Positions 26,901-34,389 of a DNA stretch of 64,000 bases are shown one piece after another (position 1 is the stretch's first letter; each line of letters opens with the position of its first letter). The translations under genes and the position numbers were made by a program. Below the pieces are notes generated by a model. The model made no database searches and had not been told where the DNA came from. It was given only the letters and a program-made list of their open reading frames with translations. Origin of the DNA: Actinomycetota bacterium (lineage in GTDB: Bacteria; Actinomycetota; JAHEXW01); assembly GCA_025355855.1 (NCBI GenBank), contig JANXYU010000031.1:1530-65529 (forward strand), read 5' to 3'.

Positions 26901-28160
26901 CTATTTCGAGGTGTGCCTGATGGCTGCGTTAAAGGCCGTGATGGTGGCAGGCGTAGGGATTTTTATGGCGATGCCCAAACGCATAATAGCGCCGCCAAAC
27001 AGTTGCAGTTCGTTCGGTTTGCCCGCCTGCTCAACGTCGCGCTGCAGCGATGTCTTGGTATCATACGGAAAAGCGCCGGCTTTATCGAACGTGGCCTCAA
27101 TGATGTTTGCCGGCAAGTAAATCCCCTTCGCGTCCGCAATCGCCTTGATCTCGCACATTATTTGCCTCGTCTGGTCGGCAAGCTCGGGGTCAGCCATGAC
27201 CTCGCCAATAGTCTTGTCATGAGCTGACGTAACCAAGCCAAATGGCGCGATAAAAATAAACTTGGTCCAGATGGCGTTTAGGGGGTCGGCGCTCCACTCG
27301 ACCGGCAGGCCGGCCCGCTCGAAAATGTTCAGCATTTCATCCGGCTTGAAACCGGGATGCGCCGGATCCTCTCCCGTGATGATTATCCCTTGCCCGCTGG
27401 CGTACGTTACTTGCCCCGGGGCGCTGACGTGCACGCTGATTGTGACTGTGGCCGGCAAAACGATTCCGTGGGGAAGCCCGGCGCGCACTCGATCAAAGAT
27501 ATCAACCCCGTTGAGCAAAGGCATGATCACGGTCCGGTCAGCGACAACCGGCGCGAGCGCTTGAGTAGCCCCAGCCAGGTCGTACGCCTTCACGCACAGC
27601 AGAACAAGGTCCGGCGCTGGCGCTTCGCCGACGTCATCGGTTACCAAATATGGACGGGCAATGTGGCGCTGACCGTCGGGAGAAGTAAGCTCTAACCCGT
27701 TTGACCGTATCGCCGCCAAGCCCGCGTTGCGCGCAATCAGCGTAACTCTGACACCCGGCTCCTCGGCCAGAACCAAGCGGGCGCCAAAATATCCGCCAAC
27801 ACCGCCGGTTCCGTAGACGCAGACGTCGTAGACAGCTTCACTAGCCTCGTCGGTCCACTTCTTGGCCAGCAGCTTCAGGTCCGCTATATAATCATATACA
27901 GGGCTTTTGTCCCGATTCACGACTTCCAGCACGATCAATTCCAGCTCGTCCGGAGCGGCATCGAAGTCTTTCTGGAAGCCTTTGTCCATGAACGAACCCG
28001 ACGCCAGTTGGGCGCGAATGCCATTGACCTTGCCCTCCAGGTTGGTCACCCCAAAAATGAAAGCCTGCCCGGTCCGTTTGTTCCGAACCTGCAGGACGCC
28101 CATTTCCGGTCGGTTTTCCTTATATTGGCGTTTGAGCGTGCGTCTTTTGTCGGAGTCCAT
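26901..28160 (-). CDS. Ketopantoate reductase (PanE/ApbA family) fused to an N-terminal degenerate GIY-YIG-like domain
   Basis: C-terminal part has GTGGVGGYFG, LLCVKAYD, PLLNG, WTKF and TSLQRD..KPNEL. The first ~105 aa read MGVLQVRNKRTGQAFIFG..LEVV. Confidence 0.8.
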   Translation of the reverse strand: MDSDKRRTLKRQYKENRPEMGVLQVRNKRTGQAFIFGVTNLEGKVNGIRAQLASGSFMDKGFQKDFDAAPDELELIVLEVVNRDKSPVYDYIADLKLLAKKWTDEASEAVYDVCVYGTGGVGGYFGARLVLAEEPGVRVTLIARNAGLAAIRSNGLELTSPDGQRHIARPYLVTDDVGEAPAPDLVLLCVKAYDLAGATQALAPVVADRTVIMPLLNGVDIFDRVRAGLPHGIVLPATVTISVHVSAPGQVTYASGQGIIITGEDPAHPGFKPDEMLNIFERAGLPVEWSADPLNAIWTKFIFIAPFGLVTSAHDKTIGEVMADPELADQTRQIMCEIKAIADAKGIYLPANIIEATFDKAGAFPYDTKTSLQRDVEQAGKPNELQLFGGAIMRLGIAIKIPTPATITAFNAAIRHTSK

Positions 28161-28402
28161 TGCTCTATTTTAACCTACGAGGGCGGACAGCTAAACGCCA
28201 TCCAGCATCTCTCGTGGCGCAGTCGCTGGTCGTCAAGGACTACCTCTCTGATCTCGTCCGAAAGTTGGGCGCGTTGCCAGGCTCATTCTTGACGACCGTC
28301 TGCTCGCCTCCACCTTCCGGAGCGGCCGCCGCGCAAGTCTGCCAGCCTGTATACAAGACCCGCCAGTCCCTTCTGTGGTTAAATATCGTTATGGAGGCAA
28401 AT

Positions 28403-28720
28403 ATGAGCGCAATACGGCTTGGCATAGTAATGGGACTCGTGTTTGGGATTTTGGACGTCGCCATAATGATCCCTTTAAAATTCGACACGCCGCGTAAGAA
28501 ATGGGAAGCCCTAATCGGCGCGTTTATCGAGCGCTTCATGCTCGGGTTTTTAATCCCGGTCGTTGACTTAGGCATCCACCCTGCCCTGACAGGTCTTCTG
28601 ATCGGTCTGGGCCTTAGTATCCCGACCGCGGTCATAACCCGAACCTATGCACCGATTATCGGCATCGGCGTCGCAGGCGGCGTGATAATGGGCTTCGTGA
28701 CGAAATTTCTCCTAGGCTAG
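28403..28720 (+). CDS. Small multi-pass membrane protein of unknown function
   Basis: GGAGG SD before ATG at 28403, then 105 aa with about four hydrophobic segments. Confidence 0.75.
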   Translation: MSAIRLGIVMGLVFGILDVAIMIPLKFDTPRKKWEALIGAFIERFMLGFLIPVVDLGIHPALTGLLIGLGLSIPTAVITRTYAPIIGIGVAGGVIMGFVTKFLLG

Positions 28721-28752
28721 GTTGCCCATACGTCAGCTAAATAGTTAAGCCG

Positions 28753-29250
28753 ACAACCCCCGAGGATCAGAAACCGAAACCGATAATGCAAGACCTGACC
28801 TCTTGTACATTCCTTGCGCACGTGTGAAAGTTATGGGAGCATATGTTCAGCAGTCTTTATTCAGGTTGAACAATATGGAGGTTGTAGTGGCAGAAGGACC
28901 AAAAAAAAACGAAAGCTTGACCCTGGTATTGTCGTCATTATAGTTTTTATGCTGCTCGCCTTGTTTTTTGTTGTCGGTATGGCGCTATTTGATGATGGGG
29001 GACCGTTTGAAAAGAAGCCAACGCCCCAGGTTGAATCAACAAGCGTTCCTTTACACAAATAACAAAACTACACCCTATCTGTAAATTCTTGAATTCCTGC
29101 GAATTGATTATTCCTAGAATATGGGGGAGTTTTTCTAAACCGCTTGCAGAAAAAAACAGAAGCCGCAGTCGCCGTCATTAGGTCATTGCGAGGAACCCAA
29201 TAACCTCCGAGGATCAGAAGCCAAGATGTTAGGATGCGTGACCTGACCCT
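28753..29250 (+). repeat. Two related ~50-bp elements in direct orientation (28753-28802 and 29200-29250)
   Basis: Both share aYaaccYccgaggatcagaaRcc...atgcRWgacctgacc. Confidence 0.65.
28875..29062 (+). pseudogene. Small single-TM protein apparently out of frame at an A9 tract
   Basis: GGAGG-N5-GTG (28887) frame shifts at A9 (28901-28909). Ten or seven As would join it to RKLDPGIVVIIVFMLLALFFVVGMALF...-stop at 29062. Confidence 0.45.
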
Positions 29251-29400
29251 TAATATGGTTTGCAGGTCACACGCTTTCTGCTCTCCAGGCCTACCTTATG
29301 ACTAAGACAAGAGAAAACACAGACATTACGAGCGTTGATATTCCGAGAACGATGCAAATAAAACTCGAGCGAAGAGCTTTGTTTGGTCGCCTGTTTCTTG

Positions 29401-29452
29401 ATCCACCACGTACGAGATTTGCTGGTAAAGTAAGCTGCGTCTCAGTTCCTGC
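29401..29452 (-). repeat. Conserved element, copy A (core); copy B is at 33031-33082
   Basis: The two cores are 47/52 nt identical in inverted orientation, with further patchy similarity on both sides. Confidence 0.85.
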
Positions 29453-29530
29453 GGCAGCAAATATCAGCAGCCCCAGGATGACCGTTATTGTTTTTGGTTC
29501 TTGTTTCTGTTTCCGCTTGTGCAGAAATGC

Positions 29531-29558
29531 AGAAAGGCCGCCGGTTGGCGGCCTTTCT
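29531..29558 (-). terminator. Hairpin terminator immediately after tmRNA
   Basis: AGAAAGGCCGCC-AACC-GGCGGCCTTTCT, a perfect 12-bp stem. Confidence 0.85.
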
Positions 29559-29561
29559 AAT

Positions 29562-30138
29562 TGGTGGAGGTGGCGGGACCTGGTGCCCCGGCGTTTGCGC
29601 CGGGCAGGGACTATGTCTTCATCCTCGATGTTGGTCGAGGAGCGAGGCGTATAATAGCCGTCTCAGATTTGCCTATTGGCACTGACAGCTATGTAAGTCT
29701 CTACAGGGCATCTCTACCCCTCGGCGTTGCCTTATCCCCTAAAAGGGACTTAGGGTTCACCGATGTAAGCCTCGTTTTCCGTGTGGCGTTACCGCCACAG
29801 GCGACCATTTTGTTGATCGAACCCGCGTCCTAAACGGCCTTAGTAAGAGCATCTTCGAGCGTAGTCCGCGATTTAATCTCGCCTTCCAACCCCCGCGGAC
29901 GGGGTTTAGTCGGCCATCCCGCTGGTTACCGCAAGCGTTAGCGGGAGTCCCGCTTTACGGTTTCCCACTTGTGACGCCAGGTCCTGAGCCGTGGGACTCC
30001 CAGGCTGACGACGCTACTTATTAAGCAGCGTAGGCTAGTTCAGTGTTGGCATTTATAGCCGTTCCGGTTGTTTAACGAGTACCAGCCCTCGGCTCGCTTC
30101 TCTTACCTCATCTGTCCAGTCGATACCTTTACACCCCC
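29562..30138 (-). ncRNA. ssrA: tmRNA interrupted by a group I intron in the T-loop; tag peptide (A)ANTELAYAA
   Basis: 5' GGGGGTG pairs with 3' CACCTCC-ACCA. Resume ORF GCC AAC ACT GAA CTA GCC TAC GCT GCT TAA at 30050-30021. Lies next to smpB. Removing 29579-29815 restores GCGGG-TTCGATT-CCCGC and gives a 340-nt RNA. Confidence 0.97.
29579..29815 (-). mobile_element. Group I self-splicing intron (237 nt, no ORF, IA-like with P7.1/P7.2)
   Basis: P1 CGAU^CA/UGGUCG with a U-G pair at the splice site; P3 CGAGGC/GCCUCG; P-like CAUCGGUGAAC; Q-like GGCAACGCCGAGG; R GUAGAGACU; S GAAGACAUAGUCC; P8; P9; terminal omega-G. Confidence 0.95.
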
Positions 30139-30316: not shown

Positions 30317-30775
30317 CTATTTCCTAGGTTTGTGTTTTTCCTTGAAGGCGCGGGCGACGTCCCGTTTGGCTTCCTTTTCCGCGATCGTATGCCGCTTGTC
30401 GTACTGCGCCTTGCCCTTCCCCAGCCCCAGTTCCAGCTTGGCGAATCCGTGCTTGAAATATATCTTGAGCGGGATCAGCGTGTATCCTTTTTCCTTAACC
30501 CTGCCCGCCAATCGGTTGATCTCGGCCTTGTTAAGCAAGAGCTTCCGTTCCCGGGTCGGCTCCACATTAACGATGTTGCCTTGCTCATATGGACTGATGT
30601 GGAGGTTGTTGATGAAAACCTCGCCGTTCTTTATCCGCCCGAAGCCGTCTACCAAGTTTGCCCGACCAGCGCGCAGAGACTTGACCTCGGTGCCGGTCAG
30701 CACCATGCCGGTTTCGTAAGTCTCTTCGATGAAGTAATCGTGATAGGCTTTGCGGTTCGTGGCGACGGTTTTCAA
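30317..30775 (-). CDS. smpB: SsrA-binding protein SmpB
   Basis: [21 protein letters not shown] and [10 protein letters not shown] motifs. TTG start at 30775 follows GGAG/GAGG. Confidence 0.98.
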
Positions 30776-30783
30776 AAGACCTC

Positions 30784-32154
30784 TTACTCCATTATAGCAC
30801 TTGGACTCGACGTTTCCGGTTCCGCAGATGCGCCGCCGAACGCCAGCCAGGCCAGGAAGAAGAACGATATCGCGTAGTAAAAGTAGTTGTTGTGAGTGAA
30901 ATACGAAAAGACAATGAAAACGAGCGTTGTAATCGCGGAGGCCAGCATCACGATTTGCAGTGTGTTCCGCCGGCGCTGCCACCATAATAGCAGGGCCATC
31001 AGAGGCGCCAGGAAGACGATGTAAAAGATTTGCGACGGGAACGAACTACCGGCGTTTTTGACTAGCCCCATGTGCAAGGCGATTGCGCTGGCAGTCCAGC
31101 CGTCGATGTGGGCGCCGTTCTTGGTCAGGCCGTTCGGATATTTAACGATGTCGTTGATGAAATGCCCCGGGCTCCACAAGAAGAATGGCACCGCGAAGAC
31201 AAGAATCATCACGCCCAAGATAAGAACAGTGATCGCCAAAGGTGTCAGTTTTCCGTCCGACCCGCGCACCCAGCCGCTATCCTTGATATGTTGGCCGGCC
31301 ACGTAAAGCAGATAGAAAGGCAGAACAAGCAACATGAACTGCTTGGACAGTAGGCTCATTCCGAAGAACACCGCGGACCAACCGTAGCGACGCTTCGTCA
31401 GGAATAACAGTGACAGAACAAGGCCGGTCATCGCCGCCACCTCATTTGAACCGGCGACAAAATAGAAGACCACATCGGGATTGAGACCGAAGACGATCAT
31501 CATCGCCAGTTTGGATTCCCTCGTCGGCGCGAGCCGGTACAAGGCCCAGAGCAACAGGAAGAATATCGGCAGATAAACAAACCTCAGGTCAAAATAGCCG
31601 ACCGTATAGTGCACAAAAAGATAACCCGGCAGAGGCATCAGGAAGGTCATGGGGAGATAGACATAGTGCTCCAGCGGGCCGGCGGTCTCTCCCGCCATAT
31701 GAGCCATCGGTGTGTTGTAGTAGGTCTGACTGTACGGGTTTTGCCCATGCAGCAGCATCTTCATGGCCTCTTCCGTCTGAACGGCTGAGTCCATAATGCG
31801 ATGGCTGGGACCGGCGACATAACGGCCGCCAATGCTTAGACTCATCGGCCCGATGACGGTCAACGCGATCAAGACCCCCAGTATCGTCAACTTGGCCGCG
31901 TGCCTGCGCCGGGCGTTGCTCAAAAAGAACTCAGTCATGAGATACCCAGCGACCAGCAGGATAACCAACATAGCGTCAATATGTAGCAGCAGATCGGCGG
32001 TCCGGTTCGCCGGTGTGACGTAACGGATGTACCACAAAGACATGGTAAACATCAGCACCAGAAGACCTGTATCGATAGAGATGTTTAGGGGCTTAGGGTC
32101 GGCCACAACCGACTCCGCTTGCACTTTGGGGTCATTTGTCATGCTGATTATCAT
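30784..32154 (-). CDS. Multi-pass membrane glycosyltransferase, GT-C fold (GT87/DUF2029-like)
   Basis: Many TM segments, with [28 protein letters not shown] and KQF motifs. Confidence 0.65.
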
Positions 32155-33171: not shown

Positions 33172-34389
33172 CTAGTTCTTTAGTGTCTTCCAGTCGGTTC
33201 CGCCCAACATCAACTGCAAAACCTCTAAGGCCTTGTTCAGCTGGGCATCTGTCGCGTCTCCGGCCGGCGGCTGAGCCACTTTGATATCGGGAGTGACGCC
33301 GACCTTGTTAATGGTGCGGCCTTTCGGAGTGTAGTATTTGGCGGTCGTGATTATCAAGCCGCTGCCGTCGGACAGATCCATGACTGTTTGTACACTACCC
33401 TTGCCGTAGCTTTGTTCGCCAATAATCGGTCCGCGGCCGTAGTCTTGAATGGCTCCCGCGACGATCTCGGAAGCCGACGCGCTTCCCTTATTGACCAGTA
33501 CACACATGGGAATCTCGGTGTCGGCGGTGCCGGTGGCCGTGTATCTCTGTTCCGCTTTGTTCTTCTCGCGGATAGACACGATCACACCCTTGCCGATAAA
33601 AGCGCTGGCGACGTCAACGCCACTGATCAACAGGCCTCCCGGGTTGTTGCGCAAATCGAACACGATGCCCTTGGCGCCTTCGGCTTTCAGTTTTAGTATC
33701 TCTTTGCGCACATCAGGCCCGGCCGACGAATCGAAACTATGTATCAGACGGATATAACCGATGTTGCCTTCCAGCTTGGATTGGATGTTGGGCACGCGGA
33801 TCTCGGCTCGGGTCAGCGTAACGTCGCGCGCCGGGGTGTCGCCGGTGACGACGGTGATGGTAACCTTCGTGCCGCTCTTGCCTTTGATTTTGTTGACTGC
33901 GGTGTCAAGCGGCATGTCTTTGGTCGGCTTGCCGTCGATCGCTGTGATCTTGTCGCCAGCCTTGAGACCGGCCTGGCCGGCTGGGGTGCCATCGATGGGG
34001 CTGACCACCGTCAGCTGGCCATCGGTGAGCTCCAGCGTCATGCCCACCCCTTCAAAACGTCCCTCGGTGACCTCATTGACGTGCTGGAAATCGGTCTTGC
34101 TGAAGTGCATTGTATGAGGATCTCCCAAGGCGTCTAACATGCCGTTGATGGCGCCGTTAACCAGTTTGGTTTTGTTTGGCGTCTCCACGTACTGAGTCAT
34201 CGTAATGTTGTAGATCTCTTCCAAAACGCTGAACGTCGAACCGTTGCTGTTCGATAGCGAAGCATGGTTGGCAACGAAGCCATTCAGAGCGACTCTCTCG
34301 CCGAGGAAGAGACCGCCGGCAAAGACGCACGCGGCAATGAAGACGGCCAATAAGGTGACTCCGGTGATTTTCATGGCTTTCTTAGGCAA
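33172..34389 (-). CDS. S41 family carboxy-terminal processing protease (CtpA-like)
   Basis: PDZ domain, DLRNNPGG, SASASEIVAGA and SYGKGSVQ motifs. Confidence 0.95.
   Translation of the reverse strand: MPKKAMKITGVTLLAVFIAACVFAGGLFLGERVALNGFVANHASLSNSNGSTFSVLEEIYNITMTQYVETPNKTKLVNGAINGMLDALGDPHTMHFSKTDFQHVNEVTEGRFEGVGMTLELTDGQLTVVSPIDGTPAGQAGLKAGDKITAIDGKPTKDMPLDTAVNKIKGKSGTKVTITVVTGDTPARDVTLTRAEIRVPNIQSKLEGNIGYIRLIHSFDSSAGPDVRKEILKLKAEGAKGIVFDLRNNPGGLLISGVDVASAFIGKGVIVSIREKNKAEQRYTATGTADTEIPMCVLVNKGSASASEIVAGAIQDYGRGPIIGEQSYGKGSVQTVMDLSDGSGLIITTAKYYTPKGRTINKVGVTPDIKVAQPPAGDATDAQLNKALEVLQLMLGGTDWKTLKN

Follow-up and report, generated by a model that had tools for sequence, protein, structure and literature searches.

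The ssrA gene, which encodes tmRNA, lies on the minus strand of the stretch of DNA analysed here (64,000 nt, hereafter the window) at 30138..29562 and is 577 nt long, insert included. Read in the direction of the RNA, the gene runs through ...GGACGCGGGTTCGAT to U29816, is interrupted by an insert that begins with CAACAAAATGG and closes with GGGGCACCAGG (29815..29579), and resumes with TCCCGCCACCTCCACCA (29578..29562). The initial annotation had described a T-loop split at 29579-29815 by 237 nt ending in G, and these coordinates are exact on the minus strand. The 5' exon of 323 nt (29816..30138, minus strand) starts with GGGGGUGU at 30138 and carries the 5' strand of the acceptor stem (GGGGGUG), the tag frame, the pseudoknot region and the 5' strand of the T-stem together with T-loop nucleotides 1-6 (GCGGG UUCGAU). 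The 3' exon, 17 nt at 29562..29578 on the same strand, reads UCCCGCCACCUCCACCA and supplies T-loop nucleotide 7, the 3' strands of the T-stem and of the acceptor stem, the discriminator A and an encoded CCA. The tag reading frame called by ARAGORN on the spliced sequence (30018..30050, minus strand) is GCC AAC ACU GAA CUA GCC UAC GCU GCU UAA UAA, that is ANTELAYAA followed by two stop codons. As read from the sequence, the acceptor strands GGGGGUG and CACCUCC form a G3.U70 pair, and the locus thus combines the features that define a tmRNA gene, namely a tRNA-Ala-like acceptor with G3.U70, a tag frame with its resume codon and stop, an encoded CCA and an SmpB partner.

Standard tools do not recover this gene as a whole. 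ARAGORN reported six tRNAs and no tmRNA in the window, and the Rfam tmRNA model RF00023 matched 29814..30130 (120.5 bits, E 1.6e-46) with an alignment that ends at ...GGACGCGGGUUCGAU, T-arm and acceptor stem each lacking their 3' half and the 17-nt 3' exon being omitted. The expectation of the initial annotation that ssrA would be missed or truncated here is thereby borne out. The permuted-tmRNA model of Rfam gave a weak partial match that overlaps the match of the standard model (33.7 bits, below its cut-off of 47). When positions 29816 and 29578 were joined in silico ARAGORN called a 340-nt tmRNA with the tag ANTELAYAA and its two stops, whereas the unspliced form gave no call. The T-arm of the joined sequence, GCGGG-UUCGAUU-CCCGC, agrees with the Rfam consensus, and the junction that had been predicted, GGTTCGATTCCCGCC, yields a canonical T-arm.

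The source genome (1.34 Mb in 35 contigs, estimated to be 91% complete) contains one tmRNA match, the remaining hits being tRNAs of at most 45.6 bits. A second, intron-less ssrA that would be the functional copy, which the initial annotation had named as the finding that would overturn its reading, was not found in this genome, although at 91% completeness a second ssrA could sit on the missing DNA. The smpB ORF (30317..30985, minus strand; Pfam PF01668, 208 bits, E 7e-62) contains no internal stops and is separated by 178 nt from ssrA, which follows it on the same strand; as the SmpB domain covers 30338..30766 only, the true start of smpB is probably downstream of the first ATG. Further upstream on the same strand are an ORF of 456 aa without a family match (30784-32154) and an S41 C-terminal processing peptidase with a PDZ domain (33172-34389). 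A sigma-70 promoter scan, which is uninformative for this lineage, found no match upstream of ssrA. Straight after the CCA, a 12-bp GC-rich hairpin (29531..29558, minus strand) is probably a terminator or a 3'-processing signal; the terminator consensus scan made no call there because a long T run is missing.

On comparison with the same-genus genome G001, the DNA beyond the putative ssrA terminator is a variable spot. The ~1.3 kb directly downstream of ssrA (window 28160-29560) has no counterpart in G001 and all of its ORFs are without a family match, and at the matching place G001 has a specific 1.6-kb stretch of its own with AHSA1/SRPBCC, Imm5-like and DUF3795 genes. Two plus-strand ORFs overlie the intron, 29298-29654 and 29561-29833, both antisense to the RNA; for the former, as for the ORFs downstream of ssrA, no Pfam or NCBIfam match was found.

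Group I architecture of the insert

The insert (29579..29815, minus strand) is a 237-nt group I intron without an ORF, inserted after the sixth nucleotide of the T-loop, at subsite 7 (UUCGAU/U), an assignment that draws on the RF00028 match, the fold z-score, covariation and 19 other tmRNA loci with a homologue at the same site. It starts with CAACAAAAUGG and ends with CACCAGG, U29816 preceding it and G29579 being its last base. The searches with group I and tmRNA models that the initial annotation had proposed as a check gave, beside the tmRNA match above, an Intron_gpI (RF00028) match that spans the insert end to end with 35.6 bits (E 3e-7 in a search of 900 nt and 1.1e-7 in the whole genome), obtained with permissive thresholds and below the curated gathering score of 50 bits. 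The minimum free energy (MFE) of the insert is -99.4 kcal/mol compared with -70.9 +/- 4.4 for shuffled sequences (z -6.54), and this fold, computed without comparative input, recovers P2-P6, the peripheral hairpin, P8 and P9.

Pairing was counted for P1, P2, P3, P4, P5, P6, P7 (written as a pseudoknot) and P9 in a MAFFT alignment of 11 tmRNA introns. In these core helices 94.5% of the cells are paired, and compensatory changes occur in 21 of the 45 pairs; covariation scored 0.408, as against at most 0.072 with slid partners, and none of 500 shuffles reached the observed values. As MAFFT is unreliable between clades for P5a, P7.1 and P8, each sequence was folded separately for these elements, and the P5a, P7.1-region and P8 hairpins formed in every homologue from differing sequences. 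The insert thus has the marks of a group I intron, a -1 U in a P1 wobble with an internal guide, a terminal omega-G and a P3-P9 core with a covarying P3/P7 pseudoknot, in agreement with the intact-looking core that had been proposed for it.

Most helices listed by the initial annotation are present as described (P1 with its U-G pair, P2 with a GUAA loop, P3, P4-P6, P7 as GACU/AGUC, P8 and P9). All of the following coordinates refer to the minus strand. P1 (29802..29819) is read as 6 bp between exon CGAU plus intron CA (29819..29814) and the internal guide UGGUCG (29807..29802), and includes the splice-site wobble U29816.G29805; the U.G is kept in 11/11 homologues and the adjacent pair covaries (CG, UG, UA). 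P2 (29782..29799), 7 bp closed by the GUAA tetraloop of GNRA type, has all seven pairs changed on both sides among the 11 sequences and is recovered in the MFE fold. P3 (29643..29774) pairs CGAGGC (29774..29769) with GCCUCG (29648..29643), with 100% of cells paired and 3/6 pairs compensatory; between its two strands lie the P4-P6 domain, the P7.1-region hairpin and the 5' strand of P7, and P3 and P7 together make up the core pseudoknot. The P4-P6 domain (29706..29763) comprises P4 (UCGGUG/CGCCGA, 29763..29758 with 29726..29721), P5 (CCU/AGG, 29754..29752 with 29732..29730), P5a (29749..29744 with 29739..29734) and P6 (29720..29718 with 29708..29706), P4 and P6 being paired in 100% of cells, and a CCUAAG...UAAGG motif around P5 resembles a tetraloop receptor.

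P7 (29609..29699) consists of GACU (29699..29696) paired with AGUC (29612..29609) and is invariant in 11/11 sequences; its 3' strand is preceded by J8/7, AUGAAGACAU, and the region aligns to the Rfam consensus AGACU...GAAGAUAUAGUC. A P7.1 and a P7.2 had been proposed as well, and there is indeed a hairpin at that position (29654..29692), but it is one compound hairpin rather than two separate ones, made of a 9-bp stem (29692..29684 with 29662..29654) and a distal 4-bp hairpin (29681..29678 with 29673..29670). In six Actinomycetota sequences 53 of the 54 cells of the stem are paired, several pairs having changed on both sides. P8 (29623..29640; CCUCGA/UCGAGG with the loop CCAACA) is a hairpin in every homologue, and in P9 (29579..29607) an outer stem, CUG/CAG, is topped by an inner one of 7 bp with the loop CAAA and followed by omega-G 29579, 8/10 pairs being compensatory. 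The putative P10 pairing with the 3' exon amounts to 1-2 bp at best.

At the positions that are otherwise unanimous in the family the source intron has a single unique departure, the relatives having 0 to 3 each in the 11 sequences. It is C29597, the first base of L9, which gives CAAA in place of the GAAA found in 10/10 aligned relatives and could weaken an L9-P5 tertiary contact. This base may be a real mutation or an error of the assembly consensus, and the CAAA loop is the only sign that we see of a possible impairment of the intron.

Relatives of the intron and the gene of a sister species

When 60 relatives were searched at the DNA level, four genomes proved to have the intron in the same position, namely G002 of the same family (85% identity), G003 of the same order, and G036 and G050 of another family of Actinomycetota; as G003 belongs to the Actinomycetota, the actinobacterial lineage suspected from the window was correct. 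A search with a 22-nt P3-P5 pattern returned eight loci from named genomes and 12 metagenome contigs, the named genomes being G003, G036, Ca. Aquicultor primus and five Bacillota, among them Ca. Formimonas warabiya and a Desulfitobacteriaceae MAG. When ten of the pattern-search loci were scanned with Rfam, the tmRNA match ran into the insert in 10/10 and Intron_gpI matched in 9/10. The homologous tmRNA introns score 36.8-57.1 bits with Intron_gpI, three Bacillota loci (51.4-57.1) exceeding the curated 50. In all 20 extracted loci the intron is preceded by GGTTCGAT, ends with the omega-G and is followed by TCCC, indicating the same subsite.

The intron phylogeny, likewise proposed as a check, was obtained as a maximum-likelihood tree in which an Actinomycetota-type clade (100/99 support), which takes in three metagenome sequences without a known host, is separate from a Bacillota-type clade. 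The two types also differ in the P7.1 region, which forms one compound hairpin in the Actinomycetota type and two separate hairpins in the Bacillota type. The class to which the source organism belongs holds five species genomes; three of the five carry the intron (the source genome, G002 and G003), G001 carries a fossil of it, and in G004, a fragmented genome, no ssrA was detected. The intron therefore appears to be ancestral in this poorly sampled class, and its compensatory changes, together with its persistence across the family and the order, indicate selection on the intron fold.

Two further observations were made among the relatives. The metagenome contig Ga0214473_10010584 (L038:9680-10010, minus strand) has a related tmRNA intron of 358 nt, which exceeds the 237-nt intron by roughly 100-110 nt in the segment separating the P5 strands. 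Near several intron-form tmRNA genes of Bacillota and metagenome contigs, pieces of group II introns were found at distances of ~160 nt to 3 kb from the gene's 3' end (L046:1-65, minus strand; L043:4256-6051 and L026:2186-4830, plus strand). Some bacterial group II introns target sites adjoining terminators, which may explain their presence near these genes.

The sister species G001 has a standard, intron-less ssrA (189 bits) with its own terminator and the same tag, ANTELAYAA. Its 5' exon is 94% identical to that of the source gene, and its junction, GGTTCGACTCCCGCC, departs from the predicted spliced product at a single base. A fossil lies some 296 nt beyond the 3' end of this gene, in which the intron's final 13-17 nt are followed by the former 3' exon, TCCCGCCACCTCCACCA, and by the former terminator with the GC-rich hairpin; it is 87% identical to window 29597..29519 (gene and fossil together at G001:C15:19229-19948, L019:230-949). 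The locus is syntenic between the two genomes on both flanks, and synteny and fossil together indicate that the ancestor of the genus had the intron, which G001 then lost by rearrangement of its DNA. As a tentative and rather doubtful reading of that event, the ssrA of G001 would be a reversion of the intron form to the standard form, in which an intron-less 3' exon with its own terminator replaced the 3' end of the gene from the T-loop on at the DNA level, possibly via small T-loop-targeting insertions, and stranded the old intron end and 3' exon ~300 bp downstream. In the G001-specific DNA that follows the fossil no integrase was found, only the AHSA1/SRPBCC, Imm5-like and DUF3795 genes, which leaves the idea of a collapsed island without direct support. 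If small T-loop-targeting insertions did carry out the replacement, such elements would be a general route for evicting introns from tRNA-like genes.

Splicing model and alternative explanations

We propose that the sole tmRNA gene found in the source genome is split by a group I intron that self-splices and thereby restores a standard tmRNA, and we consider this very probable; that splicing takes place in vivo and in vitro, and its chemistry, we infer from membership of the family. The gene would be transcribed as a 577-nt precursor in which the 237-nt ribozyme folds around the T-loop, exon CGAU pairing with guide GUCG as P1 with the U.G at the splice site. An external guanosine would attack after U29816, and then the terminal G29579 would be bound where that guanosine had been and the 5' exon, now free, would attack after G29579, joining the exons as GGUUCGAU-UCCCGCC. 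The expected junction in the ligated RNA is GGUUCGAUUCCCGCC, and ligation would rebuild the T-arm and acceptor stem of a 340-nt tmRNA, the partner of the SmpB encoded just upstream. The endonuclease-free intron would be a vertically inherited passenger in a small actinobacterial class, one that must splice if trans-translation is to occur.

It is conceivable, albeit unlikely, that the intron is spliced in vivo and yet is not autonomous, alignment of its 3' splice site requiring either the tRNA-like domain in its folded state or a host protein, for instance a tRNA-binding factor or an RNA chaperone. The very weak P10, the non-GNRA L9 tetraloop of the source copy and the lack of a maturase or endonuclease encoded in or near the intron would fit such a dependence, but the core of this copy is complete, and the C. 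botulinum tmRNA intron had earlier been shown to self-splice according to PMC2729099. The CAAA loop, along with an Rfam score of 35.6 bits below the curated cut-off and the replacement of the intron-bearing gene end in G001, would also be in line with an intron that is real but splices poorly or no longer, in which case ssrA would be a pseudogene or nearly so and ribosomes would be rescued by another route. We find this improbable given that just one unique deviation occurs in 237 nt with all core helices intact, that the intron persists across the family and the order with compensatory changes, and that the tag frame, the acceptor stem with G3.U70, the T-arm and smpB, which has no stops, are all preserved.

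There remains the concern that the insert is an artefact, as the genome is a 35-contig draft that is probably metagenome-derived, so that the contig might be mis-binned or chimeric, or as tmRNA genes are common integration sites (PMC11915505), so that an integrated mobile element might merely interrupt ssrA. This we regard as scarcely credible. On either side of the locus the contig shares synteny with G001, and its ssrA region matches G002; the intron recurs at this very site in G002, in G003 and in several metagenome contigs; a search of the window at up to 3 mismatches detected neither a duplicated gene end nor an att-like repeat, and there was no integrase among the scanned ORFs neighbouring ssrA; and the insert has a group I architecture with an exact -1 U and omega-G. 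The self-splicing intron in an otherwise standard tmRNA gene is therefore the explanation that we adopt in what follows.

Comparison with known systems and significance

An intron form of ssrA at subsite 7 of the T-psi-C loop was reportedly described in C. botulinum by Williams in 2002. The initial annotation considered such introns rare, a view that is out of date: the tmRNA database of 2025 (PMC11915505), in which the intron form is one of three ssrA gene forms, lists 883 unique intron-form sequences from 21 phyla, most of them at T-loop position 7, the originally known site, and among 33,359 Actinomycetota genomes it counts 18 instances at position 7. A homing endonuclease is present in just 4.1% of the intron-form tmRNAs, the mean intron length is 293 bp for the 843 founding sequences and 414 bp for 40 later additions, and the smallest intron-form gene reported has 545 bp (PMC11915505). 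Compared with these, the source intron of 237 nt is shorter than the mean of 293, and the 577-nt gene is close to the smallest. The database covered NCBI genomes up to GTDB release 214, and at least the relatives with older accessions (Ca. Aquicultor MELI01, of 2016 style, and G003, JAGVPG01) were probably already screened in it, judging from their accession numbers.

The source gene fits every defining feature of the intron form that was tested and falls short of the generic Rfam gathering score alone. It shares with the other intron-form tmRNA genes the host gene, subsite 7, the -1 U and omega-G boundaries and the rebuilding of the T-loop, and its intron has direct sequence homology to the tmRNA introns of Bacillota and of other Actinomycetota. 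No difference from these genes is one of kind. It differs from the Bacillota introns in belonging to the Actinomycetota-type clade and in having the compound hairpin in place of P7.1 and P7.2. Neither in the intron nor beside it did a survey of the ORFs and family searches around the locus find a homing endonuclease or maturase, as the initial annotation had anticipated in calling the intron ORF-less, and this is a property shared with ~96% of the catalogued intron-form tmRNAs.

Group I introns also occur in the anticodon loops of bacterial tRNAs, among them tRNA-Leu UAA and tRNA-fMet (10.1101/2020.01.27.920355). Like these, the ssrA intron is a small ORF-less group I ribozyme in a tRNA-like RNA and obeys the same splice-site rules, but it sits in the T-loop. 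The source genome has a second group I intron, outside the window, in the anticodon loop of tRNA-Asn(GUU) (CUGU/intron/UAA, 239 nt, G000:C27:963-1204, minus strand), which scores 83.6 bits with Rfam compared with 35.6 for the ssrA intron, and ARAGORN calls this tRNA only once it is spliced in silico. The permuted, two-piece tmRNA involves neither a ribozyme nor ligation, and its mature RNA stays in two pieces; its genes resemble the source ssrA in departing from the standard form and in escaping the standard finders.

The intron form of ssrA in Actinomycetota is thus an already known gene form, uncommon in the phylum but recorded, and since the gene form, the subsite and the occurrence in Actinomycetota have all been published, our findings introduce no new principle. 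What they add is modest, an intron that is apparently ancestral in its class and an Actinomycetota-type clade that is distinct from the Bacillota type, and the most interesting by-product is the intron fossil beside the intron-less ssrA of the sister species. In annotation, ssrA would be reported as missing or truncated in the source genome. As for the organism itself, ribosome rescue in this reduced genome would depend on a ribozyme, if the intron splices as its family membership suggests.
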